A stretch of DNA of 63,127 nt, filler included, from Basidiobolus ranarum (taxonomy: Eukaryota): NCBI GenBank assembly GCA_040143965.1. It is 45 parts of 45 records of this genome, joined end to end, with 100 filler letters (N's around TTAATTAATTAA, not from the genome) between each part and the next. Parts side by side here need not be neighbours in the genome. Positions count along the whole stretch, not along the records: positions 36,599 to 37,901 come from JASJQH010012494.1; 44 more parts are not named here. One strand, 5' to 3'. The notes below the pieces were generated by a model, which worked only from the letters and a program-made list of their open reading frames with translations, was not told the DNA's origin and searched no databases. Shown here piece after piece: positions 1 to 62,004 of the stretch (its first letter is position 1; each line of letters opens with the position of its first letter). The translations under genes and the position numbers were made by a program.

Positions 1-305
1 AGTGATTAGCTTTGTGAGATAATTTTTTATTGTCCAGAAATAAAGCATTTATACTTTTTGGTGGAAATACAGAAAACTAACACTGGGGTTGTGTTCAGAA
101 CATCTATGGGAGTAAACTGAGCTATCATTGGGGTAATTTGCATTAGTTTGAAATTTCTAATATAGAATTGCTAATTCTCACATTATTCACATATGTATAA
201 AATATCAGTTCCAATATCAGTTAATTAATATTTCACTAAGCAATGTTAACTTACTTGTATGTGCTATTAGAAATAGTTAGGTGTATAGAGGTAGAGATAA
301 CAAAT
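1..305 (-). repeat. LTR family A fragment (Ty1/copia LTR)
   Basis: Matches the full copy at 30984-31394 (gttcagaacatct.tgggagtaaa.tgagctatc ... aatagttaggtgtata). Confidence 0.85.
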
Positions 306-479
306 AGAATTCTTGTGGACCCTTGAAACCGAATTTTGCCTACTGAAGTGCCCAAAACAATGTCAGAAGTTGTGGTACCTTTATCCCAAACCTGTCTCAA
401 TAAGGAACTGGACAAGGACTGTAAAATGAGCTATCTTTGGGGCAAAAAAGAAGGCCATAGGGCTGATGTCTTGGAGTCT

Positions 480-1312
480 TCACTCAAGCACAAGTTTTGC
501 AGGTAGAAACATAAATCTTGACAAATGCAAACATTTTGGGCCACCAATAATCCCTGGATGCCAACATATATGATTTGGCAATACCAAAATGTCCTGCAAG
601 GGGTGAGTCATGTCTTTGCTGCAAGATTTTGAGTCTGGAAGTGTGGTCTGGCATGTAAAGGTGCTTCTTATAAAACAAGAGATCATTGATGATAGAGAAA
701 TGCCCATAGAAGTTCAAGCTTGAGAGGCCTTTGGGTCTATCCTGGGCTTTCTTGATTAATATTACCAATGAGTCTTCAGATTGAAGTTTGTGGATGTATT
801 TGTGGAATGTACTTGAACTAGGCAGAGAAAGAGCAGTTGCACCAATTCAAAGTAGGTGAGGCTTCAGTAAAGATGTATTTTGCTGGCCACAGGCCTCATC
901 CCCTTCTTTAGGCTGATATTCTGCTCTACATATTATGGCATCAGGTATTTCTTGCTGGTTACCTGGTTGATATGTAATCACAAAACCAAAACTGGCAAGA
1001 AATAATCACCATCTTGCTTGATGGTGGTTGAGAACTTTGGTTGTGCTAAAATACCAAAGATTCTTTTGATCACAATAAACTGGGATCTTCTGATTTGCTC
1101 CATCTAAGTATTGTTGCCATTGTTGGAATGCAGCAATAATTGTTAATAGTTCCTTGTCATAGATGTCATAGTTAATTTCTACTGCAGGGACCTTTCTTGA
1201 GTAAAACACAACAGGGTGCAGTAAGTTGTCATCACCATACTGTGATAGTACTGCTCCTGAAGCAAAGTTGGATGCATCAGTTTCAACAATAAATTGCTTG
1301 TCTAGCTTGGGA
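480..1312 (-). pseudogene. Ty3/gypsy pol remnant: RNase H followed by integrase HHCC zinc finger
   Basis: FIVETDASNFASGAVLSQ...HPVVFYSRK...NYDIYDKELLTII...QARW, then HDSPLAGHFG...YWWPKM...CKTCA. RH-before-IN order is gypsy type. Contains stops and frameshifts. Confidence 0.93.
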
Positions 1313-1412
1313 NNNNNNNNNNNNNNNNNNNNNNNNNNNNNNNNNNNNNNNNNNNNTTAATTAATTAANNNNNNNNNNNNNNNNNNNNNNNNNNNNNNNN
1401 NNNNNNNNNNNN

Positions 1413-1639
1413 TATGGTGACTTATATAGTAGAAAAGTAAATCAATTGTTTGAGATATTCAGGAGTTTGTGTAATAAGATATAATAGATAAGTGGGGGTA
1501 ATAAGACATACTTGTTATATAGAAATAGAGATATGCCTATTTAGAATATAGGGGCTATAGATACATTGCTTTCTGTTTCTGATATATGTATCATATCTAA
1601 AGTTACCTATGATGTTAAATAAGGATTAATTATCCAACA
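1413..1639. repeat. LTR-like family G fragment ending ...TATCCAACA
   Basis: Homologous to ~52880-53054 (ends ttatctaaca) and, inverted, to 52027-52070 and 52490-52545. Confidence 0.65.
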
Positions 1640-1653
1640 GAGAAGCTATCTAT

Positions 1654-2001
1654 TGTTAAAGTATTTGTGAGCCTGTTAGAAGTGGTTTTGAGAATTAGAG
1701 GAATTGGTGGTTTTCACTAAGTGATTTATTGAGTAGAAAGTTGACATTCATAGTTTTGTCAAGATGTAAACAAACTAATGTGTAGAGTGTGTTAAGGAAG
1801 GTCCCAGGAACAAGTGTGCAAAGTTTGGGGCTTCTAGCACAAGTTTGAAAAATCTTCAAATCTGAGAATCTTTAAGTTGGTAAAAATATTCTAAGTAAAT
1901 TCCAATTTAGAATAATTGATAATATCTTAGTGAATTATAAGATAACTAATTACTAAGTTATATATGACTATATAGATGTTTAAGCAATGCTAACTTCAAC
2001 G
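1654..2001 (-). repeat. LTR family B copy
   Basis: TGTTAAAGTATTTG...CTAACTTCAAC; homologous to 21968-22316 and 46577-46924. Confidence 0.85.
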
Positions 2002-2009
2002 GAAACAAG

Positions 2010-2724
2010 TCATGCACCTTCAGAGTAATGCCTGGTTTGTGGTTTTTCACAATTGGCTCAAATCCAGGTGATTTCGGGCAAGATTCCACACAGTTTTGAA
2101 AATTTTAAACCACTCATCATCAGAGCAAGTGATGGCAACTCTGATGTTCAGAGTGTTTAGGTTTGCTGGTTTTCCTATGAGATTTCTATTTTCATGTGCT
2201 CAAGCAATTTCAGGTTGTTGTGTAGGCTTAATGGTCCAACACATACTCTGCTCTGCTAGATTGTCATGGTACCATTCTTATGTATGATGTGGGATTGATT
2301 GAAATCCTGTATCAGAATGGATGGAGGTAGCAGCATGTTCCTGTAGCTCAAGTACAGCATTCTGAAGATCTTGTATCATTGTTGAGTGACTCTCTAACTG
2401 TTGACTAGTTGCTTCAAAATGCTGCATTAATTGCAATATTGTGGCATTATTGCTTTTCATGGCCTGTATATCAACTTCATAGTTTTTACTTATGATTGCA
2501 TACAAATCATTATGGTGTTCTGCCTGCAATTCCCTTGTTGTAATAATTCTATCCAAACTCTCTACAGAGGGTTGTTCAATAGTGGGCAAAGTAGCCATTT
2601 TGGAAGTTGATGGTCTTGACGGTGTTTTGGTTGAACAATGCTCAACTATTTATTTACTATGTACTAGAGGGATTACAATCTCTTCACTTGCACTATTGCT
2701 GGCAAGGAACACATCTGGAGAATT
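2010..2724 (-). mobile_element. CMC/CACTA-like element, ORF2 remnant
   Basis: Near-identical to 47822-48140 and 59880-60329 (MATLPTIEQPSVE...QQLESHSTMIQDLQ). Confidence 0.9.
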
Positions 2725-2824
2725 NNNNNNNNNNNNNNNNNNNNNNNNNNNNNNNNNNNNNNNNNNNNTTAATTAATTAANNNNNNNNNNNNNNNNNNNN
2801 NNNNNNNNNNNNNNNNNNNNNNNN

Positions 2825-3406
2825 CTCTCTTGGGCTTCCTCTTCAAAGGTCTTGTAAGTGGTGGTGAAAATAAGGGGTGATCACAAGTAGTAATTGTTAG
2901 TTGAAAACCAAGATGATTTTTATTTGAAAAGATATAGCTCCTTTTTATACTTTTCTGGTGGTAGATATGATTACTAATGAGAATTTCCGGAAAGTTCCAG
3001 AGAATTCAATTGGTGGGGATCTGGGGTTATGATATCATCATAAATCATAAGATTTTTAACCCATGGAATGTTCCAGAAGGTTGTAGAATAATCCAGAAAG
3101 TGATGGAATTCTCTGGCAAAATCAAGTTTTGATTGGTCAAAACTCAATCAATCATCAAATATTCCAACAATATTGTGGAATGTTCTGGAAGATTGTAGAA
3201 TTTTCCAGAAAATAATAGGCCAATGTGGGTTTATACTGATAAATCTGAAGTAATAGGGGATAATATTAATAGTGTGACATGATTGGCTAGAAAATATGGG
3301 TAAGTCAATTAAAGATAATAAAATAGAAATTGTGTGATAGTAATGATATAAGCTTGGGGTGGAAATAAGTCAACTTGCCAGTGGGTAGCAATGCTACCCC
3401 ACTACA
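2825..3406 (-). repeat. LTR family E (starts TGTAGTGGGG), U3 region with HSE arrays and TATA box
   Basis: A second copy begins at the same TGTAGT at 44552, where it interrupts CMC sequence. TATAAAAAG on the minus strand at 2941-2949. Confidence 0.75.
2985..3210. promoter_or_regulatory. Three heat-shock-element-like (nGAAn) arrays in LTR-E
   Basis: 2985-3007 TTCcgGAAagTTCcaGAGaaTTC; 3066-3098 GAAtgTTCcaGAAggTTGtaGAAtaATCcaGAA; 3178-3210 GAAtgTTCtgGAAgaTTGtaGAAttTTCcaGAA. Confidence 0.75.
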
Positions 3407-3446
3407 CTGCCATCAGTTGACTTAGATGTTTTTGCAGGAACACTGC

Positions 3447-4135
3447 TAAAGAGGATCAGCCAGAGCCAGGGATTCCAATTAGATACTATGCTCTTACCAT
3501 TCAACAACATACCAATACTACTTATTTGGCTACAAAGGGGAAAATTCAATATGAATAAGCCATTTGAGATATGATCAAAGTTTAAATCAATTGCAAAATT
3601 GCTTGAACATGTCAAGATACCATCATATCTTACCAGGACTCCTATCAATATCCACTCATTTAGGCATTTATTCAAATGCAAAGACTGGAAGTATTAGATT
3701 CATATATGTTGAAGTGGAATGGTGAAAAGATTTCTGACTGATAAGTATTGGCAACATTGGGAGTTGTTTGTCAATATAGTTAATATATTCTTGTTGCATT
3801 AACTCATATTGGTAGATCTCAGGTAGATACAGCAACTATGCAAAGATTTTGTAATTGGATAAGAAAAGCTTTATCGCAGATTTAAAGAAGATGCACCAAC
3901 TATATGCTGGTATTTAATAAATGCCCTGCTGAATCTTTCTCAATGCTTAGAGATTATAGGCCCTTGCAATCCCTAACAAAAATAAAATCAATCTGATCCG
4001 GATCAGATCCACCCTCCAAATAGCAAAGCTGTCAGAGTACCATCACAATATTGGTGGCTTGCATTGTGCCAGGGATTTTGATGATATTTTGACAGTATTC
4101 ATACATGTTAAAATATTGATCCTCAAATTTGGCAT
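3447..4135 (+). mobile_element. CMC transposase remnant interrupted at 3971 by the right terminus (CCCTAACAAAAAT) of another copy
   Basis: Homology to 35580-36060. The terminus sequence recurs at 14990, 20081, 21289 and 49381. Confidence 0.88.
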
Positions 4136-16989: not shown

Positions 16990-18134
16990 CATATTGGGAA
17001 GATATGGGCCATTTGGAGGAACTTTACAAAAGTGGAGTTGTGAATAGTTTGTGAGATAATTATGCATTGTCCAGAAATAAAGCATTTATATATTTTGATG
17101 GAAAGATAGAAAAGTCACACTGGGGTTGTGTTCAGAACATCTGTGGGAGTAAAATGAGCTATCTTTGGGCAATATGGACAAGTTTTAAATTTCCAATATG
17201 GAATTGCCAACTCTCACGTTATTCACATATATATACAATGTATGTTCCAATTATCAGTTAAGTGTTATTTGACTAAGTAATGTTAGCTAACTTATATGTT
17301 ATATATGAAATAGTTAAGTGTATAAAGATAGAGATAACAAATATGATACAGACAATAAACTTCAACAGTCCCAGTCAACTAAATATTCATATATCTTAAT
17401 CCTAACTTAAATCTTAATTCTTCAAATTTAGGCTTGGGTAATGGTTTGGTAAGGATGTCAGCCATCATTTCCTCAGTTGGACAGTACTGCAGTTGGATGT
17501 GCATATTCTCAATAGCTTCCCTGACAAAATGATGTTGAATATCAATATGCTTACTTCTAGCATGAAATTTGGGATTTTTAGCTAAAGAAGTACAACTTTG
17601 GTTATCCTTGAAAATTATAGTGGGTGAACTTCAAATTATGCCCAAGTGTTTGAACAGTTTCCTTCACCACATAGCCTCCTTTGTTGTATCTGATGCTGCC
17701 ATGTAATCTACTTCAGTTGCTAAAAGTGCTACGGTGGGTTTTTTCTTGCTATTCCAAGATATGGCTTCTTCACTATAGAGAAAGGTATATCCAGTGATAG
17801 ATCTTCTGTCCTCAATATCACATCCCTAATATGCATCACTAAACCCAATTAGATCCTTATTCTCATAAGAATATGTGTATCTTAATCCCAGATCAATTGT
17901 CCCCTTCAAATCTCTGAAAATCTGCTTAACTGCTGCATAATGATCAGATCCTGTATTTTGCACATGTTGGCTGTCTACTCCCACTGAAACAGAAATATTT
18001 GGTTGGTATCCAGTCATAGCATAGATCAAACTATCTACCATAGATTGATAAGGGAGCTCAGGGCTTTTAAATGACATATTTTGAGCCATATTTGGCCAAT
18101 TTTCATCATTTTGGATGGGACTTTTGACTAGTTT
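16990..18134 (-). mobile_element. 3' end of Ty1/copia element: RT/RNase H, PPT-like tract, 3' LTR-A starting TGTTGAAG at 17367
   Basis: YQSMVDSLIYAMTG, LIGFSDA, SKHIDIQ motifs; AGTTGACTGGGAC lies immediately before the LTR on the minus strand. Confidence 0.88.
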
Positions 18135-21143: not shown

Positions 21144-22449
21144 CAAAATGTATAAATGCTTAATTTCTGGTCAATAAATAATTATCTCACAAAGCTATTC
21201 ACAACTCCACTTTTCTAAAGTTCCTCCAAACAGCCCATATTTTCCCAATAGATCCAGTCCAGATCAAATCAATTTTATTTTTGTTAGTGCACAGTGCTTA
21301 GAGATTATAGGCCCTTGCTATACATTCTGGGAGTTCCCAATGGAGCATACCTGCAGTGAAATGATGCTCCATGTGAAATTATCAGTATTACCATATGCTA
21401 ATCTGATTAACAATGTATCAGCAAAATCTGTGATTGATGTAATGCAATGGGTCAAGGAAACTCCAGATTATACTAACTTTCCAGCAAAGGGCTCTTTTCA
21501 ATGTGCTCATGGGTTTTTGCATTTTTTGAGCACAATAACAGCAACAAAGCCCAATTCATGGACAGAGAGTAAGTACCTCTATAATTTGGACTAATTTGTT
21601 AGTGTGATAATCTGATGGTATTTCTAGTAAAGCTGCAAGACAGACTTTTTGGTGAGATAGATCAACAGATGCAGTATTATTGTTTTAGCCATGGGGTAAT
21701 CAATTCAATCAATGGCTCATCTACTTGTGGCAGGACATTTTTTGACTGCAAGTTGGGGATATTTTGGCTGAATTCTTTATGAAAATTTGCCAAAATCCAA
21801 GAACTTATTCTCATTGTGAACAGTAACAAGAGTCAGCAATTTGCCAAGTGTCAGTGCAATTCAAAATTTCAGATGTTTAGCAATTTTTCCACCATTAGTT
21901 TGCTGGTAAAGCATATTGATGTTGTTGAATTATGTCTGATCTGTCAAATATGTACATATGTAGAGACTGTTAAAGTATTTGGGAGCCTGTTGGAAGTGGT
22001 TTTGGAGAATTAGAGGAATTGGTGGTTTTCACCTATTGATTTATTGAGTAGAAAGTTAACATTTATAGTTTTGTCAAGATGTAAGCAAACTAACATGTAG
22101 AATATATTAAGGAAGGTCCCAGGAGCATGTGTGCAAAGTTTGGGGCTTCTAGTGCAAGTTTGAAAAATCTATATATCTGAGAACTTCTAAGTTGGTGAAA
22201 ATATTCCAAGTAAATTCCGATTGCGAATAATTGATAATATCTTAGTGAATTATAAGATAACTGAGTACTAAGCTATATATGACTATGTAGGTGTTTAGGC
22301 AATGCTAATTTCAACAGAGACTAAACACAACAAGATTGTTGTATTTTTTGATCCTCATTATGGCTGGAATACAAAGCCCAAAATATCTCAATGAAGGCAT
22401 GCATATTAATTTGAATTCCTACAGCAGTAAACCCAGTAATTTGCCATTC
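21144..22449 (+). mobile_element. Nested mosaic: LTR-A piece, CMC right terminus (to 21289), CMC transposase 3' region with solo LTR-B
   Basis: IIGPCYTFWEFPMEH motif; junctions match other copies. Confidence 0.85.
21968..22316 (-). repeat. Solo LTR family B (349 bp) with 5-bp TSD GAGAC
   Basis: gagac|TGTTAAAG...TTTCAACA|gagac. The empty site atatgtagagactaaacaca is present (inverted) at 15341-15360. Confidence 0.93.
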
Positions 22450-22549: not shown

Positions 22550-23064
22550 AATAAATGAAAAATATCAGTCTTAGTTTTTATGGTTGATAGATAAGCTACC
22601 ACGGATAAATTGTAGCAATCTTTAACGGTATGAGATCCTAACATAGCAACTCCGGTATCCCTGACTGCCATTAAATCGGAATAATCGCCGAAAGGAGAAG
22701 CACCAAGAGACTCGCTGCTTTCAGCCGCAACATGAATAACAGCGGGAGTTTGTTCGGAAGAAAGCTGATAGAGGAAGGGAATCAATCTGAGAAGATTGCT
22801 CGAAGAGGTATACAAAGAAACTCTAGAATATTTCGTGCTCAAATTACGATAGGCGGCAGCAATATCTGAGTTAGATGGAATAACTACGACTTCGGGGACA
22901 ATACCAGCTACGTTAACCGCTTGTTTTTGAATTAAATCTTCGATACCAGCAAAGAAGCTCGATTTTTCCTTTGTATTTTGAACGATTAAGATGGCTTCAC
23001 TATAAGCATATGCAACGCGAGAGGCAGCAGATTCGCCACTGAATACATTTTCAAGGCTAGGCAT
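22550..23064 (-). CDS. N-terminal fragment of a probable sulfite reductase (NADPH) subunit with a pyruvate:flavodoxin oxidoreductase-like N-domain
   Basis: ASRVAYAYSE, YTSSSNLLRLIPFLYQL, PAVIHVAA, GDYSDLMAVRDTG, DIFH motifs. Normal CpG. Truncated by the contig end; alpha versus beta subunit not resolved. Confidence 0.7.
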
Positions 23065-23955
23065 TTTTGCTAGTTAAATTGGACCGATGTGTATGACGAT
23101 GAGAATTTGTGTAAGTTAATGCAAGTGTGTTAGGAATGTAGTAATATACAGATGCTAAATATAATAATGCGCTTTGAGAGCCAAAGAGTTAATCAATGAA
23201 AGGCTCACACTGATCTGTACTGAATAAGTTGAGGATGCGAGATGTATCTTTATATCAATCCACCCTCCTCTATTATTCCTAATCCAGTATGGAGTAGGTC
23301 TTCGAAATATAATCACGCCATTAATCGCTAGCATGGCAGAATGATGAAGTGCCCCCACTTAATTTTGAAAGAATAAATAGATCTTACATTTGCATAATAA
23401 ATTAGAATTAACTCTGTTACAGCCTTATACGAGGTTAATTTTAGTATAACTTGGATCTTATCTTCCATGCTAAAGCAGCTTTGAAACCCCGCAGTATTTT
23501 AATTTTGTGTCCTCCTTAGTATGGGCGATATTGTATGAATGAAACATGGAGAATGGAGCAAATAACCGATCATGTTGCTCTCTTTCGTGAGTATCATTGG
23601 ACAGGGAGCCTCCAGATCAATCTGAAGTAACATTACAGTTGACTCAACATCACGCAAGCACACACCATCTCCCAACATGATTGCACCATCGCTACTGGCT
23701 TATTTGGAGTTCGCTCAATTTCAAATCCAAAGGGTTTTGAGTTCAAATCACCATATATAGCTATTTCTGTGGATAGTTTTTCCATGACTGCCATATTAGG
23801 CTCCCTTCGAGCCTGGTTGCCGTAATTCGAAATAAAATGCTTATTAACCTTCAAANNNNNNNNNNNNNNNNNNNNNNNNNNNNNNNNNNNNNNNNNNNNT
23901 TAATTAATTAANNNNNNNNNNNNNNNNNNNNNNNNNNNNNNNNNNNNNNNNNNNN

Positions 23956-30983: not shown

Positions 30984-31394
30984 TGTAAAGGTTAGAACAT
31001 GTGGCTCATATCATATTGGGAAAATATGGGCTGTTTGGAGGAACTTAAGAAAAGTAGACTTGTGATTAGGGGTGTGAGAGTTATTATTTATTGTCCAGAA
31101 ATAAAGCATTTGTACATTTTGGTGAATAAACTACAAACTAACACTGGGGTTGTGTTCCTAACATCTGTGGGAGTAAAATCAGCTATCTTTGGGGCAATTT
31201 GGACAAGTTTGAAATTTCCAATATGAAATTGCTAATTCTCTCATTATTCATATATATATATATAATATATGTTCTGATTATCAGTTAACTGATGTTTCAC
31301 TAAGTAATGTTAACTAGCTTATATGTGATATATGAAATAGTTAAGTGTATATAGATAAGGATAACAAATATGATAAAAATAATAATCTTCAACA
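30984..31394 (-). repeat. Complete LTR-A (411 bp, TGTTGAAG...CCTTTACA) inserted in copia pol
   Basis: Both termini visible. The same CCTTTACA end is at 35400 and the TGTTGAA start at 17367, 39522 and 41059. Confidence 0.88.
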
Positions 31395-35194: not shown

Positions 35195-36498
35195 TGTCCA
35201 AATTGCCCCAAAGATAGCTCAGTTTACTCCCACAGATGTTCTGAACACAACCCCAGTGTTAGTTTTCTGTATTTCCACCAAAATGTATAAATGCTTAATT
35301 TCTGGTCAATAAATAATTATCTCAAAAAGCTATTCACAACTCCACTTTTCTAAAGTTCCTCCAAACAGCCCATATTTTCCCAATAGTTCTAACCTTTACA
35401 GCATAATCAATGGAGTCTACTCTATAAGGAATATGCATTACTACTATCCAAATACAAAACTAAACTCCATGATTTTACTGTCAAGAGCCTGGTCAGATTT
35501 CAACATGATCACTGATATCAATTCATCAAATAGTCAGTCTAACATCAAACTTGGTATTAGTCATAAGCCTCAGATTATATTGCTAAAGGAGATCAGCTAG
35601 AGCCAGAGCTTCCCAGTAGGCACTATGAACTTACTATTCAACAACATTCCAATGCTACATACTCAGCTATATAGTGGAAAATTCAATATGAATAAGCCAC
35701 TCAAGATACCATCATATTTTACCAGCACTCCCATCAATATCCACTCAGCTAGGTGTTTATTCAAATGTAAAGACTGGAAGTATTGAATTTGTATATATTC
35801 AAGTGAAATCTTGAAAAAATTTCTGCCAGATAAGTATTGGCAACATTGGGAGTTGTTTGTTGGTATTGTTAATATATTCTTATGGCATCAACTCACATTG
35901 GCAGATCTCAGGCAGATGCAGCAACTGTGCAAAGATTTTGTAATTGGATATGAAGAGCTTTATTACAGTTTGAAAGAAGATAGATTGAATCTATGCCAAT
36001 ATTCAATACATTCCCTGCTGCATCTTTCACATTACTTAGAGATTTTAGGCCCTTGCTATACATTATGGGAGTTCCCACTGGAGTGCACCTGCAGTAAAAT
36101 GATGCTCCATGTGAAATCATCAGTATTATTGTATGATAATCTGATTAACAATGTATCAGCAAAATCAGTGATGGATGTAATACAAAGGGTTATGGAGATT
36201 CCAGAGTATGTTAACCTGCCAACAAAGGGCTCTTTTCAACGTGCTCATGGTATTTCACATTGTTTGAGCATAATAACAGCAACAAAGCCCAATCCATGCA
36301 CATAAAGTAAGTACCTCTATAATTTGGACTAATTTACTTGTGTGACAATCTGATGGCATTTTTAGGAAAGTTGCAAGACGGACTTCTTGGTGAGATAGAT
36401 CAAGATACACAGTATCAATGTTTTAGCCATGGGGTAATCTATTCAAGCAATGACACATCTACTTGTGGCAGGACATTTGTTGACTGCTAGTCGGGGAT
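35195..36498 (+). mobile_element. LTR-A 3' part (to 35400) inserted in CMC transposase
   Basis: ...AACCTTTACA|gcataatcaatgg; ORF KYWQHWELFV...HSLLHLSHYLEILGPCYTLWEFPLE. Confidence 0.9.
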
Positions 36499-37191
36499 NN
36501 NNNNNNNNNNNNNNNNNNNNNNNNNNNNNNNNNNNNNNNNNNTTAATTAATTAANNNNNNNNNNNNNNNNNNNNNNNNNNNNNNNNNNNNNNNNNNNNTC
36601 AGAAGAAGAACATTCAACTTGACATTCAGTCTGGTGTTGACCATGCAGATATCTGGGAAGAACTTAATATAGAGTGGCACAATGTTGCAGGGTATCTGCC
36701 AGATAGCTGTAAGAATGTTGGTTCAGCAACATTATTACCATGGTGGGCTTTGATGGAGATATTGAAACAAACTTGTGTTGGGTATGAGCTAAACCTTGGG
36801 CATGAAGAACTCTATAAAAATATTCTGGAGAATATATTGAAGAGACTAGGGATTTTGAAGGTGACAAATTAGCATTCACATGGTAATTGTGTAAAATTTG
36901 AGACATATTTTTCACACATGTGTTGATCCATAGTTCTTTGAGATTTTAGCCAATCATGAGCAACTATTTTGTGAGATCTTGAAATTTCACTCCTGAAACT
37001 GAAAAATTGATTAAAATCAAATCTAACTTGATGATTTTATGACAGTAAGTAAATGGTCAATCCCAAATGGATTAAAATTGTGACAGTTTTCCTACAATAT
37101 CAATCCTCAAATTTCTGTCAGGGGGAAAGGAACACATCTGGTAAATTGATTAATGCTTCATCATTACTTGGGCTAGTTTCTGGCATGTTAA

Positions 37192-37473
37192 TATTGAAAT
37201 TATTTAGGGAGAAATATTGGTCTGGCCAGGATTTGAACCTGGGACCTCCTTCACTCTTGCAAGGTGCTCTAACCACTGAGCTACCAGTCCTTGTATGCTA
37301 TGCCTATATTGCCAGGGAACCTTAACCTGGTCTGTCAATGTATGGTACTTTGGTATTTCAGCTATAAAAGCAACTGATTGGCCTTAGACTTTGTGTTCAG
37401 ATGTAGTCACCATACTCCATATTTTCCTCTTTGGGAATTACTGCTTGTACCGCAAGTCACCAGACTTTCAACA
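37192..37473 (-). mobile_element. 282-bp solo-LTR/TRIM-like insertion carrying a tRNA-like sequence, 5-bp TSD GTTAA
   Basis: gttaa|TATTGAAA...TTTCAACA|gttaa. The empty site ggcatgttaatgcc is at 48179-48192. Confidence 0.88.
37218..37290 (-). ncRNA. tRNA-like cloverleaf (73 nt) with Pol III A and B boxes and a degenerate anticodon arm
   Basis: GGACTGG TA GCTC AGTGGTTA GAGC A CCTTG CAAGAGT GAAGG AGGTC CCAGG TTCAAAT CCTGG CCAGACC A. Confidence 0.85.
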
Positions 37474-38001
37474 GTTAATACCATCAAAGTGGATAGTGGA
37501 TAGCTAGACTGCTCACCAATTAAGTCCTCTGTTCTTGCTGGTTTTTTCCTTTTGTGCCAGCAGGCTTTGGCTTGGAAGCCAATTTTGACTTAGATTTTAA
37601 ACGCTTTTTGAATGGCATTGAAATTTTCAGATGGTAGACTTAGTGCAATGAAATTGCTTAGAAACAGCTTATAATAAACCAAAATTGCCATCCATTACCA
37701 GAAATATCTTGTAAATCCCCTGATGACTCATCTGTGACACCATCTCAGAAACAGCTGATGATATTGATGGGCTGTACCTAAAATACCACCCATACAAGGG
37801 AGGTGTTTTTTTTTCTACAATATCCTTTTCATGCCGCAACACAATTGTTTAAAGAAGCCCTGCTATTATTGTTGCAAATTCTTGTGCTATGAAAGCCAGA
37901 GNNNNNNNNNNNNNNNNNNNNNNNNNNNNNNNNNNNNNNNNNNNNTTAATTAATTAANNNNNNNNNNNNNNNNNNNNNNNNNNNNNNNNNNNNNNNNNNN
38001 N

Positions 38002-40807: not shown

Positions 40808-42110
40808 ACACTGGGCTTGTGTTCAGAACATCTGTGGGAGTAAAATGAGCTATCTTTGGGGCAATTTGGATGAGTTTGAAATTTCCAATATGGAATTGCT
40901 AATTCTCACATTATTCACTTATATATATAATATATGTTCCAACTTTCAGGTAAGTGATATTTAACTATGTAGTGTTAACTTGCTTATATGTGATATATGA
41001 AATAGTTAGGTGTATAAATATAGAGATAACAAATATGATAAAGACAATAAATTTCAACATGATTGGATTGAACTCTCCACTCCTCAATAATCAAAGCTGC
41101 TTCCTTTGCAGTAAGTGTTATTTGAAGACTAATGTTTGCAATAACAAAGAGTCGATAACAAAGCCGTTGTCTTCTTCTTCAACTTCTGATATACTACCAT
41201 TGGTACTGGAATAACCAAGGTCAACATTTAGCTGCAAGACCTCAAAGTTATTTGGACTTATTGGTTTGACCAAAGTTGCACTTTGACCTACATCATTCTG
41301 GTCGTATACCTGTGGTAACTCCACAGTGTCTTGACTCTTGGCAGTGTTACCATAACTTTGAGGCAAACTACAGTCAGTGGACTCAATGGGCAAAAATAAA
41401 GTCAATTTAGTGCACTTATTACTGTTCTTATACACCAGGCTTTGCGCAGCTGGTGGCTTTGTACAGTGACCATGCTTGTGATTATTTTTTCTATGAAGCC
41501 TCTGGCTTTCATAGCTTAAGAATTTGTGACATTGATATCAGGGCTTCTTTGAATATTTGTGTTGCGGTATGAGAAGGATTTTATAGAAAAAAGAATACCT
41601 CCCACATAAGGGTGGTATTTTAGGTATAGCCTATCAATATCATCAGCTGATTGTGAGACAGTGTCACAGATCAGTCATCAGGGGATTTACAAGATATTTC
41701 CGGTAATGGATGGCAATTTTGGCTTATTATAGCTGTTTCTGAGCAATTTCTTTACATCAGGTTTACCATCTGAAAATTTCAATGCCATTGAAAAAGCATT
41801 CAAAATCCAAGTCAAAATTGGCTTCCAAGCCAAAGCCTGCTGGCACAAAAGGAAAAAAACCAGCAAGAACTAAGAATTTAATCGATGAGCAGTCTAGCAA
41901 TCAACTATCCACTTTGGAAGGCATTAACATGCTGGAAACTAACTCAAGTAATGATGAAGCATTAATCTTTTACCAGATGTGTTCCTTTCCAGCAATAGAG
42001 CAAGTGAAGAGATTGTAATCCCCCAATTATGTAGTAAATCAATAGTTGAGCAAAGTTCAACCAAAACACCATCAAGACCATCAACTTCCAAAATGGCTAC
42101 TTTGCCCACT
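40808..42110 (-). mobile_element. LTR-A (to 41059) inserted in the CMC central region (ORF1 and ORF2 starts)
   Basis: Reverse complement of 48000-49050; MPLKKHSKSKSK on the + strand. Confidence 0.9.
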
Positions 42111-43613: not shown

Positions 43614-44916
43614 GTTTACCAACTTCCTGCTCCTTGAGTACATCTTTAGCTGCTTTTCTTTCTTTTTCAAGTTGATAAATGTGTACACTTTTGAGATGTT
43701 TCATAAATAGGCCTATACTAGCAAAATTGCCATTTGCATGCAAAAACCCAGGATAAGGCACATGATATAAGTCAAGAACCTTCAGAGTAATGCCTGGCTT
43801 TTGATTCTTCCACAATTGGCTCAAATCCAGGTGATTTTGGTCAAGATTCCGCACCATTTCCAAAATGCTAAACCACTCATCATCAGAGCAAGTGACAACA
43901 GCTGTGACATTCGTAGTCTTTTGGCTTGCCAGTTGTCCTATGAAATTTCTGCTTTCATGTACCCCAGCAATTTTGGGATGTTGTGTGGGCTTAATCGTCT
44001 AACACATATTCTTCTCAGCTACATTGTCACGGTGACATTCATATGTATGATGTAGGATTGACTGAAATCTTGTAGTTCTGCCTACAATTCCCTTATTGCA
44101 ATAATGCTATCAAAATTCACTATGGAGGGTTATTCAAGAGTGCGCAAAGTAGCCATTTTGGAAGTTGATGGTCTTGATGGTGTTTTGGTTGAACCTTGCT
44201 CAACTATTGATTTACTATGTAATTGGGGGATTACAATCTCTTCACTTGCACTATTGCTGTAAAGGAATACATCTGGTAAATTGATAAATGCTTCATCATT
44301 ACTTGAGTTAGTTTCCAGCAAGTTAGTGCCTTTCAAAGTGGATAGTGGATTGCCAGACTGCTCATCAATTAAGTCCTCTGTTCTTGCTGGTTTTTTTCCT
44401 TTTGTGTCAGCAGGCTTTGGCTTGGAAGCCTATTTTGACATGGATTTTGAACACTTTTTGAATGGCATTGAGATTTTCAGTTGGCAAACTTGGTGTAATG
44501 AAATTGCTTAGAAACAGCTTATGATAAACCAAAATTGCCATCCATTACCAGTGTAGTGGGGAGCATTGCTTCCCACTGGCAGGTTGACTTATTTCCACTC
44601 CAAGCTCATACCATTACTATTGCACAGTTTCTATTTTATTATCCTTATTTGACTTACCCACAATTTCTAGCCAATCATATCACACTATCAGTTTTATCCC
44701 CTATTACTTCAGATTCATCAGTATTAACCCACATTAGCCCTATTATTTTCTGGAAAATTCTACAATCTTCAAGAACATTCCATAAGATTTTTGAAATATT
44801 TGATGCAATAGTTCTATTTCATAGTAATCTATAAACAGAACATATTCAATTCAACACAACTTAAGTTACTAATTCACACCTTCAAATCTTGTCCAAAACA
44901 GTTCTAAATCTCCTAA
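43614..44916. mobile_element. CMC ORF2 remnant, then LTR-E (from 44552) fused to an LTR-F fragment
   Basis: catccattaccag|TGTAGTGGGG; HSE array retained at ~44748-44780. Confidence 0.82.
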
Positions 44917-46419: not shown

Positions 46420-46924
46420 TACAATAGTGTCCCAAAGTCCTTTTTCTTGCAGCAGCATTTTCACTTTAATTTTCTAAACTTGATATTTGGTTCCTTCCAA
46501 TTTTTCAGAAGAGGGAAAATTTCCATAAATTTGAGAAGTAGACATTACAGAGAGTGCAAGCTTGGGGCTCATAACCTGTTAAAGTATTTGGGAGCCGGTT
46601 GGAAGTGGTTTGGACAATTAGAGGAATTGGTGGCTTTCACTTATTGATTTATTGAGTAGAAAGTTGACATTTATAGCTTTGTCAAGATGTAAGCAAACAA
46701 ATGTGTAGAATGTGTTAAGGAATTTCCCAGGAACAAGTGTGCAAAGTTTGGGGCTTTGAGCACAAGTTTGAAAAATCAATATATCTGAGAACTTCTAAGT
46801 TGGTAAAATTATTCAAAGTAAATTCCAATTGAGAATAATGGATAATATCTTAGTGAGATATAAGATAACTAAGTACCAATCTATATATGACTACATAAGT
46901 GTTTAGGCAAAGTTAATTTCAACA
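46420..46924 (-). mobile_element. 5' end of Ty1/copia element: LTR-B (46924-46577), PBS (46576-46565), gag start (ATG 46545)
   Basis: ...CTTTAACA|GGTTATGAGCCC, then MSTSQIYGNFPSSEKLEGTKYQV*KIKVKMLLQEKGLWDTI. Confidence 0.92.
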
Positions 46925-47821: not shown

Positions 47822-48330
47822 TGACTAGTTGCTTCCAAATGCTGCATTAATTGCGATATTGCGGCATTATTGCTTGTCATGGCCTGTATAGCAACTTCAT
47901 AGTTTTTACTTATGATTGCATACAAATCATTACGGTGTTCTGCCTGCGATTCCCTTGTTGTAACAATTCTATCCAAATTTTCTACGGAGGGTTGTTCAAT
48001 TGTGGGCAAAGTAGCCATTTTGGAAGTTGATGGTCTTGACGGTGTTTTGGTTGAACTTTGCTCAACTATTGATTTACTACGTAATTGGGGGATTACAATC
48101 TCTTCACTTGCACTATTGCTGGAAAGGAACACATCTGGTAAATTGATTAATGCTTCATCATTACTTGAGTTAGTTTCCGGCATGTTAATGCCTTCCAAAG
48201 TGGATAGTGGATCGCTAGACTGTTCATCAATTAAGTCCGCTGTTCTTGCTGGTTTTTTTCCTTTTGTGCCAGCAGGCTTTGGCTTGGAAGCCGATTTTGA
48301 CTTAGATTTTGAACGCTTTTTGAATGGCAT
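47822..48330 (-). CDS. CMC element ORF2, intact N-terminal part (basic NLS-like start, coiled coil), function unknown
   Basis: Open frame MPFKKRSKSKSKSASKPKP...; CpG-retaining copy. Confidence 0.8.
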
Positions 48331-48542
48331 TGAAATTTTCAGATGGTAAACTTGGTGTAATGAAATTGCTTAGAAACAGCTTATAATAAACCAAAATTGC
48401 CATCCATTACCGGAAATATCTTGTAAATCCCCTGATGACTCATCTGTGACACCGTCTCAGAATCAGCTGATGATATTGATGGGCTATACCTAAAATACCA
48501 CCCTTACGTGGGAGGTGTTCTTTTTTCCACAATATCCTTCTC

Positions 48543-49123
48543 ATGCCGCAACACAAACGTTTAAAGAAGCCCTGCTATTATTGTCGCAAATTCTTGTGCT
48601 ATGAAAGCCGGAGGCTTCATAGAAAAAACAATCACAAGCACGGTCACTGTACAAAGCCACCAGCTGCACAAAGCCTGGTGTATAACAACAGTAATAAGTG
48701 CACTAAATCAACTTTAGTTTTGCCTATTGAGTCCACTGACTGTAGTTTGCCTCAAAGTTTTGGTAACACTGCCAAAAGTCAAGATACCGTGGAGTTACCA
48801 CAGTTATATGACCAGAATGATGTAGGTCAAAATGCAACTTTGGTCAAACCAGTAAGTCCAGACAACTTTGAGGACTTGCTGCTAGATGTTGACCTTGGTT
48901 ATTCCAGTACCGATGGTAGTATATCAGAAGTTGAAGAAGAAGACAATGGTTTTGTTACAGACTCTTTGTTATTGGCAAACATTAGTCCACTCATAACACT
49001 TACAGTAAAGGAAGCAGCTTTGATTATTGAGGAGTGGAGAGTTCAATCCAATCTTAGCAACCAGGTGTTTATTGGTTTTCTTACACTTTTACCACAGTTG
49101 ATTGGCAACTGTTGCTTGCCACA
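48543..49123 (+). CDS. CMC/CACTA-like transposase ORF1, intact N-terminal part
   Basis: CYYC...H...H zinc-finger-like start; overlaps 4290-4585, which continues into the DDE core. Confidence 0.85.
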
Positions 49124-50649: not shown

Positions 50650-51926
50650 GAATGGAAACGTCATCGTAAAGTGATAAATTCAGCGTTTGTTGGTAAATGG
50701 CCTACAGAAGTATTTGGTGAATGTACGACTCAATTAATTCATGCTATTGAGAGAGAAGTATTTCACCCCAAAGATGTTCACTCACTTATGCAACGATTAA
50801 CTTTGGATGCACTTGGTAAAATTGGGTTTGGCTTTACATTCAATTCTTTACCAGATCCTGAAGGACCATATGTCACTTTATATGAAAGATTGAATGTAGC
50901 TCTGGGGAAGATTCTCTACATGTATATTCCATTCTTAGATCATCCAACCAATCCAATTCGAAGTTCGGATTTTGAAAGTGTTGAAGAATTTGAGAAATTA
51001 CTCTTAGAAGTAGTGAAGAAACGAATGAATCAATTTGAATCCGATCAATCATTTAATGAGAATTCCGATATTTTAAGTTCGATGATATTGGCTTCAAAGG
51101 AAGAGAATGTTCATGATTTTAGTGAAAGGGATTTATTGGTAAGTAGATTTATGAATGTATAGATGATTGTTTATATATATATACCTTTAGGTTAATATGT
51201 TGGTTCTTTAGGAGGATTTAAAGATCTTCTTCTTAGCTGGTCATGATACTACCGCTAATTCCTTGACAAGTGCCATATACTATCTTGCTAAACACCCGGT
51301 AAATTCATTCTCTAATAACACTTGATTGTGATATGTTCTAACCTCGATTGATCAGGATGTTCAACAAAAAGCACGTGAAGAAGTCATGGGTACTTCTAAA
51401 ATGCCAACCCATTCGGAGCAACAAAACATGACATACTTAACGCAAGTGATCAAAGAAGTTTTACGCTTATGTCCATCAGTAGTATATCTTCCAGATCGAT
51501 ACACCAAAGAAACCACTCAATTTGATGATTTCAAAGTACCTCCTAATACTCCTTTATTAGTTCATATATATGGAATTCATCGAAATCCACAATATTGGAA
51601 AAATCCCGATCATTTCGATCCTAGTAGATTCGATGAAGGGAATGAAATCGTTCCTGGTACTTGGATGCCATTTGGTGGTGGTGTAAGACAATGTAAGAAA
51701 CTTTTGTTTACTCCCATATCCTTTCCTACTTTAAAATTTTCTGTGATTGCTCTAGGTGTTGGTATCAATTTTTCTTTGGTGGAACAAAGAGTGGTTCTTT
51801 CTATGCTTTTGAAACATTTCGAATGGTCCTTACCTATGGATAGTAAACATCAAGATGGTCTAATAGTGAATCAAAAGACTATGCTAATGTCCATAGTAGA
51901 CTTGGGAATCATCTTTAAGGAACGCA
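50650..51926 (+). CDS. Cytochrome P450, partial; exons 50650-51138, 51212-51298, 51356-51692, 51756-51926+
   Basis: WKRHR, AGHDTT (I-helix), EVLR (K-helix), FDPSRF, FGGGVRQCVG heme motif after splicing. Confidence 0.96.
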
Positions 51927-52026
51927 NNNNNNNNNNNNNNNNNNNNNNNNNNNNNNNNNNNNNNNNNNNNTTAATTAATTAANNNNNNNNNNNNNNNNNN
52001 NNNNNNNNNNNNNNNNNNNNNNNNNN

Positions 52027-53427: not shown

Positions 53428-54728
53428 TTGGGCAAGATTCCACCCAGTTTCCAAAATGTTAAACCACTCATCATGAGAGCAAGTGACAGCAGCTCTGACA
53501 TTCAGAGTCTTTTGGTTTGCCAGTTTTCTTATGAGATTTCTACTTTCATGTGCCCAAGAAATTTTGGATCAGTGTGTAGGCTTAATGGTCCAACACATAT
53601 TCTGCTCTGCTAGATTGTCACAGTGACATTCATATGTATGGTATGGGATTGATTCAAATCTTGTATGAGAATGGATGGAGGGAGCAGCATGTTGCTGCAG
53701 CTCAAATACAGAATTCTGAAGGTCTTGTATCATTGTTGAGTGCTCTATTGCTGGAAAGGAACACATCTGGTAAATTGCTTAATGCTTCATCATTACTTGA
53801 GTTAGTTTCCAGCATGTTGATGCCTTCCGGAGTGGATAGTGGATTGTTAGACTTCTCATCAATTAAGTCCTCTGTTCTTGCTGGTTTTTATCCTTTCATG
53901 CCACCAGGCTTTGACTTGGAAGCTGATTTTGATTTAGATTTTGAATGCTTTTTGAATGGCATTGAAATTTTTGGATAGTAAACTTGGTGTAATGAAATTG
54001 CTTAGAAACAGCTTGAAATTAGCCAAAATTGCCATTTGTTACTAGAAATATCTTGTAAATTCTTGATGACTCTTCTGTGACACTGTCTCAGATTAAGCTG
54101 ATTATTATTGATGGGCTATACCTAAAATACCACCCTTATGTAGGAAGTCTTCTTTTTTCTACAATATCTTTCTAATGCCACAACACAAATGTATAAAGAA
54201 GCCCTGCTATTATTGTCCCAAATTCGTGTGCTATGAAAGCTGGATGCTTCATAGAAAAATAATCACAAGCATGGTCACTATACAAAGCCACCAGCTGCAC
54301 AAAGCCTGGTGTATAACAACCATGATAAGTACACTAAATAAACTTTTATTTTGCCCATTGAGTCCACTGACTGTACATTGCCTCAAGGTTTTGGGAACAT
54401 TGCCAAAGATACAAAGGAGTTATCACAGTTATATGTCCAATACAATGTAGGTCAAAATATAACCTTGGTCACACCAGTAAGTCGTGTCAACTTTGAGGAC
54501 TTGCTGCTAGATGTTGACCTTGGTTATTCAAGTACCAATGGTAGTATATCAGAAGTTGAATAATAAGATGTTGGTTTTGTTATGGACTCTGTGTTATTGG
54601 CAAACATTATTCCACCCATAACACTTACTGTATAGGGAGTAGCTTTGATTATTGAGGAGTGGAGAGTTCAATCCAATCTTGGCAACCAGGTGTTAAGTGG
54701 TTTTCTTACACTTTTATCACAGTTGATT
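53428..54728. mobile_element. Decayed CMC central region (ORF2 and ORF1 starts) with deletion
   Basis: Homologous to 59948-60265 and 48112-49105. Confidence 0.9.
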
Positions 54729-61728: not shown

Positions 61729-62004
61729 NNNNNNNNNNNNNNNNNNNNNNNNNNNNNNNNNNNNNNNNNNNNTTAATTAATTAANNNNNNNNNNNNNNNN
61801 NNNNNNNNNNNNNNNNNNNNNNNNNNNNTGATTATCTATATCATATTACTAATTTAATCTCATAAAATTTGTACAGATGAATTCTGAAAAGACGTGAATT
61901 CATTTAGAATACGATTCTCAAACAAAATAATGACCACATTGCTTCATAAGATAAAAACGTTCAAGATAGTCTAACGATGCAAAGGAATTATTCAGCAATG
62001 ATCT

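Follow-up and report, generated by a model that had tools for sequence, protein, structure and literature searches.

The question raised by positions 37192-37473 is what kind of mobile unit carries a tRNA-like cloverleaf within 282 bp, and whether the tRNA part belongs to that unit or came to lie in it later. The window, that is, the whole stretch of 63,127 nucleotides analysed here, consists of 45 separate contigs sorted by falling length (1312 down to 1299 bp) and joined by 44 spacers, each of which reads N44 + TTAATTAATTAA + N44 (1313-1412, 2725-2824, and so on to 61729-61828). Because the contigs are unlinked, distances and neighbourhoods across the spacers are meaningless, and retroelements found in other pieces are "same assembly" elements, not local ones. 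The insertion and its surroundings are made up of the following features.

37192..37473, minus strand (sense = minus): 282-bp insert, read as a solo LTR, in the 1303-bp piece 36599-37901
37187..37191, no strand: GTTAA, left copy of the target-site duplication (read off the sequence; script check)
37474..37478, no strand: GTTAA, right copy of the target-site duplication (read off the sequence; script check)
48184..48188, no strand: single GTTAA; empty site of the most similar host-repeat copy (flank alignment)
37474-37901, 48184-48613, 41500-41928, 44333-44551 and 53831-54240: copies of the host repeat (at least five; 86-94% identical)

The stretch 37192-37473 is a real insertion flanked by a perfect GTTAA duplication. 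Across it, the plus strand reads gcatGTTAA / TATTGAAA...CTTTCAACA / GTTAAtacc, which corresponds to minus-strand termini of TGTTGAAA...TTTCAATA. Both copies of GTTAA are followed by a T, so that the sequence equally allows an insert of 281 bp with a duplication of 6 bp (GTTAAT). When the insert and one GTTAA were deleted in silico, the flanks aligned unbroken with four of four related copies of the host repeat from the window, all of which lack the insert (near 48184-48188, at 41.9 kb on the reverse strand, at 44.3 kb, and at 53.8 kb). The right flank of the closest sister copy is 93.7% identical over 430 bp. A duplication of 4-6 bp together with an empty site in a paralogue, as expected of solo LTRs of the Copia superfamily, is thus present. 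The initial annotation had proposed a 282-bp insert with a perfect 5-bp duplication, copia-like inverted termini (minus strand) and one sister copy with the site empty (48179-48192); direct reading bore out the insert and its termini as described, with the 6-bp alternative added, and extended the empty site to four of four copies. Its assignment of the host repeat to the CMC group is backed by a weak lead only: the protein atlas returned hypothetical proteins of Mucoromycota and a weak lead to Plavaka (CMC transposase; rank 27, score 0.80, 14% of members), but the ORFs of the repeat gave no Pfam family, and the second ORF gave no lead in the atlas either.

No second copy of the insert was found in the 63 kb (blastn, word size 7), and exact patterns taken from the anticodon region and from the junction of the tRNA with the U5-like segment gave 0 matches in the metagenome collection. 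Internal LTR-like direct repeats were also not found in the 282 bp, and the notion that the insert is a complete miniature element was therefore dropped.

The tRNA-like part of the insert comprises the following features.

37218..37290, minus strand: 73-nt tRNA-like cloverleaf, decayed (ARAGORN; Rfam RF00005, 53.9 bits)
37273-37283, minus strand: box A, TAGCTCAGTGG (sequence and ARAGORN drawing)
37229-37239, minus strand: box B, GGTTCAAATCC (sequence and ARAGORN drawing)

The only tRNA that ARAGORN reported for the entire window was typed as Ser(aga) and covers 73 nt of the minus strand (37218-37290). The Rfam tRNA model gave 53.9 bits for the same segment, compared with a gathering score of 29 (E 2e-10), and this was the sole tRNA match across the 63 kb, even at E ≤ 1. 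In the cloverleaf drawn by ARAGORN, the D stem (4/4) and the T stem (5/5) are fully paired, the acceptor stem is paired at 6/7 positions with an A.A at 3-70, and both box motifs, TAGCT...TGG and GGTTC, can be recognised. At its foot, the anticodon stem has a G.G, and the loop (c-a-a-g-a-g-t) has an A at position 33 and, hence, no U33. Behind the module, the insert has no stretch of at least four T; the first T4 lies 115 nt into the flank, 141 nt after the end of the tRNA. In all these respects (perfect D and T stems, 6/7 acceptor stem, both boxes, non-canonical anticodon loop, and no T run behind it) the module is as first described from the sequence, to which a TTTT upstream of the tRNA, not mentioned at that time, has to be added (insert positions 105-108 in minus sense; window 37366-37369). 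A T-arm-like hairpin further upstream was considered as the relic of a second tRNA and discarded, as 562 of 1000 shuffles reached its score.

Serine tRNAs have a long extra arm. A Ser(aga) call on a 73-nt molecule without such an arm thus indicates a decayed tRNA copy, and U33, completely paired stems, an isotype-consistent shape and a T-run terminator, as expected of a functional tRNA gene, are all missing from the module. It is not a working tRNA. That the insert carries a working tRNA gene which the retroelement has spread genome-wide would be in line with the strong Rfam score (53.9 bits) and with the intact D and T arms and boxes, but the lack of U33, the G.G at the foot of the anticodon stem, the A.A in the acceptor stem, the serine anticodon call without a long extra arm and the lack of any T run within 140 nt downstream make this explanation barely credible.

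The identity of the insert was assessed by comparing it with two copia LTR families, A and B, from the same assembly, for which the following features were used.

46577..46924, minus strand: 5' LTR of LTR-B (TGTTGAAATTAAC...CTTTAACA), candidate helper family (sequence comparison)
46565-46576, minus strand: PBS GGTTATGAGCCC after the LTR-B 5' LTR, pairing with the anticodon loop of initiator tRNA-Met
21968..22316, minus strand: 349-bp solo LTR of LTR-B between two perfect copies of GTCTC (5-bp duplication); precedent from the same assembly
16990-17367, 31010-31394, 40808-41059, 35195-35385 and others: LTR-A, ~380 bp (estimate), at least six partial copies

LTR-B is 348-349 bp long, opens with TGTTGAAATTA in three of five visible starts (CGTTGAAG and TATTGAAA are found in the remaining two), and closes with ...CAAATACTTTAACA in all four visible ends. 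LTR-A closes with ...TTTTCCCAATA (CCCAATA) in all three visible ends, and its termini, TGTTGAAG...CCCAATA, are thus of the non-canonical type TG...TA. The insert has the same kind of ends, TG at the 5' side and TA rather than the canonical CA at the 3' side; as LTR-A ends in TA (...CAATA) in 3/3 cases, ends of this kind appear to be normal for this genome. The octamer TGTTGAAA was counted 16 times in the window, compared with 6.8 occurrences expected, and 0 of 100 shuffles reached 16. Taken together, the insert shares with both families the 5' TGTTGAA (found in 5/6 LTR-A copies and in 3/5 visible LTR-B 5' ends) and the 3'-terminal motif (C)TCCC...AA(Y)A, with LTR-A the TG...TA ends, and with LTR-B the 5-bp duplication. 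A likeness of the termini to those of autonomous copia LTRs from the same genome was therefore found. The initial annotation was right in that the insert shares its termini (TGTTGAA) with copia families of this genome, but not in calling these families local, as they lie on separate contigs. The likeness is confined to the ends: whole-length homology between the insert and LTR-B was rejected, irrespective of the orientation, because 180-237 of 300 shuffles reached the score. The insert is also shorter (282 bp) than LTR-B (348-349 bp) and LTR-A (~380 bp, estimate), and it has the tRNA-like module where LTR-B has a cassette of TATAAAT and AATAAA.

One LTR-A copy (about 31000, minus strand) is followed by a related ...TATGAGCC... 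sequence. Both this and the LTR-B PBS point to half-tRNA priming as known from Ty5, Drosophila copia and rust copia elements (as cited in PMC10886601). Fragments of copia integrase were observed among the pieces of the window, with matches of ~50% identity to sequences from plants and oomycetes, which gave no guide to the taxon.

Since the ends of the insert are near-palindromic (TGTTGAAA / TATTGAAA), its orientation was tested, not assumed. An alignment of the last 20 nt of the minus strand to the 3' end of LTR-B contained 16 matches, 2 mismatches and 2 gaps, and its score was reached by 1 of 3000 random 20-mers from the window. When the 8-nt core was set aside, 26, 44, 94 and 221 of 4000 random pieces reached the score for the four LTR-B copies, compared with 238-3922 of 4000 for the other three pairings of insert and LTR-B ends. 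The last 30 nt of the minus strand also resembled the LTR-A 3' end (12, 21 and 76 of 3000 random pieces reached the score), which was not the case for the 3' end of the plus strand (1174, 1194 and 2882 of 3000). These end statistics are modest, amounting to about 0.01 after conditioning and with several pairings tried. A solo LTR read in the plus sense would be an ordinary LTR of copia type driven by Pol II, with TATAAAA ~110 nt from the 3' end. In that case the tRNA, an antisense passenger close to the U3 start, would play no role in transcribing the element. Its start, TATTGAAATTA, is identical over 11 nt to that of one LTR-B copy (B58), its end (...CAACA) has the canonical CA, and the TATAAAA lies 111 nt from the plus-strand 3' end, comparable to the TATAAAT of LTR-B at 99 nt. 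Beyond the 8-nt core, however, the plus-strand 5' end is unlike the LTR-B 5' ends (959-2577 of 4000 random pieces reached the score), whereas its 3' end is unlike that of LTR-A (1174-2882 of 3000) and not convincingly like that of LTR-B (238-1705 of 4000), and in 282 AT-rich bases, counting both strands, a heptamer resembling a TATA box has about an even chance of occurring (rough estimate from base composition). We consider the plus-sense reading unlikely; judged from the end sequences, the minus-strand sense, with the tRNA in sense, appears to be favoured by about three to one.

The same inverted ends could also belong to a MITE with imperfect terminal inverted repeats of 8 bp, a 5-bp duplication and a tRNA-derived core that is there incidentally. 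The size of the insert would fit, and TGTTGAAA and TATTGAAA match as inverted repeats at 7 of 8 positions; against this, the repeat is just 8 nt long, both ends match copia LTR ends from the same assembly beyond what an inverted repeat would need, and 5 bp is the duplication that copia LTR-B makes in this genome, so that a MITE is quite improbable. The locus is an integrase-type insertion with copia-like ends, and very probably a copia-type solo LTR with a tRNA-derived module in sense. A solo LTR is also what the initial annotation had taken it for, and the 5-bp duplication, the empty sites, the copia-like ends and the precedent of the LTR-B solo LTR all support this.

Read in the minus-strand sense, the insert can be divided into four parts.

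37466..37473, minus strand, insert positions 1-8: 5' terminus TGTTGAAA, common to the copia LTR families A and B
37291..37465, minus strand, insert positions 9-183: unique U3-like part with GGCCAATCAG and one TTTT (sequence)
37218..37290, minus strand, insert positions 184-256: tRNA-like module (ARAGORN, Rfam)
37192..37217, minus strand, insert positions 257-282: 26-nt U5-like 3' segment ...CTCCCTAAATAATTTCAATA, resembling the LTR-B and LTR-A 3' ends

The U3-like part, which has no homologue in the window, LTR-B included, also contains TTTTATAG; at the place of the TTTT the plus strand reads TATAAAA. The last ~100 nt of LTR-B hold its TATA box and AATAAA; the tRNA module, therefore, occupies the normal place of the Pol II promoter/R cassette. 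The U5-like segment begins exactly where the tRNA ends, and neither a tail nor an A run nor a separate duplication accompanies the tRNA, which argues against a later SINE-type insertion into a single copy. Such an event, by which a tRNA copy or tRNA-derived element would be nested in an otherwise ordinary solo LTR, in this copy or in a small sub-lineage only and in a family otherwise without tRNA, would agree with the single copy in the window. One-off intermediates of this kind must even exist if Helenus elements arose by SINE insertion into an LTR, as proposed in PMC10886601. However, the tRNA piece lacks not only tail, A run and target duplication but also a SINE body, it stops exactly at the start of the U5-like segment shared with LTR-A, and the 6-nt CAATAT repeat flanking it is what chance would yield in 282 nt (estimate). 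Nesting is, thus, an improbable origin of the module.

Elements with a comparable layout were described under the name Helenus (Kojima, 2024; PMC10886601), as the initial annotation had noted, and the features of the insert fit them. In that paper, Helenus elements are TRIMs with a tRNA-like sequence in the LTR (TRIMp3). They comprise 113 families from rust fungi and a few from Agaricomycetes, the hosts given being Pucciniales, two Agaricales (Table 1 of the paper) and Amylostereum (in its text), and examples are LTR-1_PTrit and the Helenus-n families of Puccinia, Uromyces and Cronartium (PMC10886601). The fungal members make 5-bp duplications and have copia partners; Helenus often occurs as solo LTRs, and tRNA-Thr, Ser-AGA, Ala and other tRNA genes are wrongly called in many copies (PMC10886601). 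Their transcription by Pol III is, according to the paper itself, unvalidated, and an insertion of a SINE into an LTR is proposed as their origin (PMC10886601). The insert agrees with Helenus, as described in this source, in having within the LTR a tRNA-derived sequence that retains TRGCY...YGG and GGTTC, in the non-functional state of the tRNA part (several rust families are likewise miscalled as Ser-AGA), in the 5-bp target duplication, and in being a solo LTR, which is frequent in Helenus. It shows every listed Helenus feature that a solo LTR can show, a likeness in described features.

There are also differences from Helenus as the paper describes it. The host here is a Basidiobolus-like, early-diverging fungus; the insert is known from a solo LTR alone, whereas a TRIM is defined by two LTRs, a PBS, a PPT and the lack of a coding part; and the LTR ends of the insert are like copia ends, whereas LTR-1_PTrit and Copia-9_PGr are without LTR likeness (PMC10886601). 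The Helenus screen, as described there, started from Repbase seeds and went on to relatives of the seed genomes (PMC10886601), and the lack of early-diverging fungi in the list is, therefore, no evidence of absence from them. The insert is best regarded as a probable new element of Helenus type, from a lineage of fungi for which none is recorded. In a literature search, TRIMp3 was used in this sense by Kojima (2024) only, no paper after 2024 was found that links Helenus to other fungi, and the titles and abstract openings of the Basidiobolus retrotransposon literature contained nothing on tRNA-bearing LTRs.

A small-RNA module in the LTR is also found in the plant TRIM Cassandra, where it is a gene with an internal Pol III promoter, and in the nemertean TRIM Ajax, which has part of a 5S promoter within its LTR (both according to PMC10886601). 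The module of these elements is derived from 5S rRNA and their hosts are plants and nemerteans, whereas that of the insert is tRNA-like and its host a fungus; Rfam gave a tRNA only and no 5S match in it. The insert is like tRNA-derived SINEs (SINE2) in being a short mobile unit that does not code for protein and has a tRNA-derived part with both boxes, A and B. SINE2 elements begin with a tRNA-related head and finish in a tail of A or of simple repeats, neither of which was found: the tRNA part of the insert occupies positions 184-256 of 282, away from the 5' end, the last 26 nt do not form a tail, whether A-rich or repetitive, and the insert has, in contrast, LTR-type ends and a fixed 5-bp duplication.

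The best explanation of the locus, to which we assign a probability of roughly 0.6, is that of a solo LTR of a copia-mobilised LTR retrotransposon that lies in a copy of the host repeat and has the Helenus-type (TRIMp3) layout with the tRNA module in sense. In a Basidiobolus-like fungus, the parent element would have landed in one of the copies of the host repeat, and recombination between its two LTRs would then have removed the interior and one LTR, leaving the 282-bp solo LTR behind. This parent may have been a short element and, as the initial annotation had proposed, a non-autonomous one; its PBS would pair with the anticodon loop of initiator tRNA-Met, and integrase and reverse transcriptase may have been supplied by a copia family such as LTR-A or LTR-B. 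As only a solo LTR is at hand, however, a miniature element and a full-length copia element with the same LTR are indistinguishable.

While the element was active, boxes A and B of the tRNA module may have served as an internal Pol III promoter. A transcript starting at the +1 of the tRNA would make the last 99 nt (positions 184-282) the R-U5 for the first strand transfer, and even if the transcript ended in the flank, it would retain the repeat on which this transfer depends. Two observations weaken the case for Pol III: the LTR lacks a terminator behind the tRNA, and the TTTT in the U3-like part of the 3' LTR would require read-through. Four T act as a weak stop in yeasts.

A further-reaching interpretation is that the Basidiobolus lineage has a Pol III-driven miniature LTR family of its own, independent of the Helenus elements of rusts, in which a tRNA promoter replaced the Pol II/R cassette. 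In such a family, the tRNA promoter would abut the very U5 end that integrase reads. We regard this interpretation as tentative, and a little more doubtful than not.

If the full genome confirms paired copies, TRIMp3 elements would occur in a third, deeply separate fungal lineage, which would support a repeated origin of such elements, and the join would be a clear one, with the tRNA module ending exactly at the copia-like U5 end. Such copies would then be mistaken for tRNA genes, and masking them ahead of any tRNA gene count in this genome would be advisable. If the family is indeed an independent one and abundant, the predicted number of tRNA-Ser(AGA) genes would be inflated, as it is by Helenus in rusts. 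This kind of element has been known since 2024, and no long-standing question is opened by the present case.

Most of the other pieces of the window are also repeats, among them several LTR families. Protein-coding fragments were observed as well, and two of them place the assembly near Basidiobolus, with a Basidiobolus-like, early-diverging fungus as its source provided that all pieces stem from one organism; an origin from a rust fungus was rejected on the same proteins. A P450 fragment (51332-51982, plus strand) is 65% identical to a protein of Basidiobolus meristosporus, with other Basidiobolus and Mucoromycota sequences next, and a second P450 piece is present at 50650-51162 (plus strand). 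A fragment of sulfite reductase beta (22552-23073, minus strand) is 84% identical to that of Basidiobolus ranarum.
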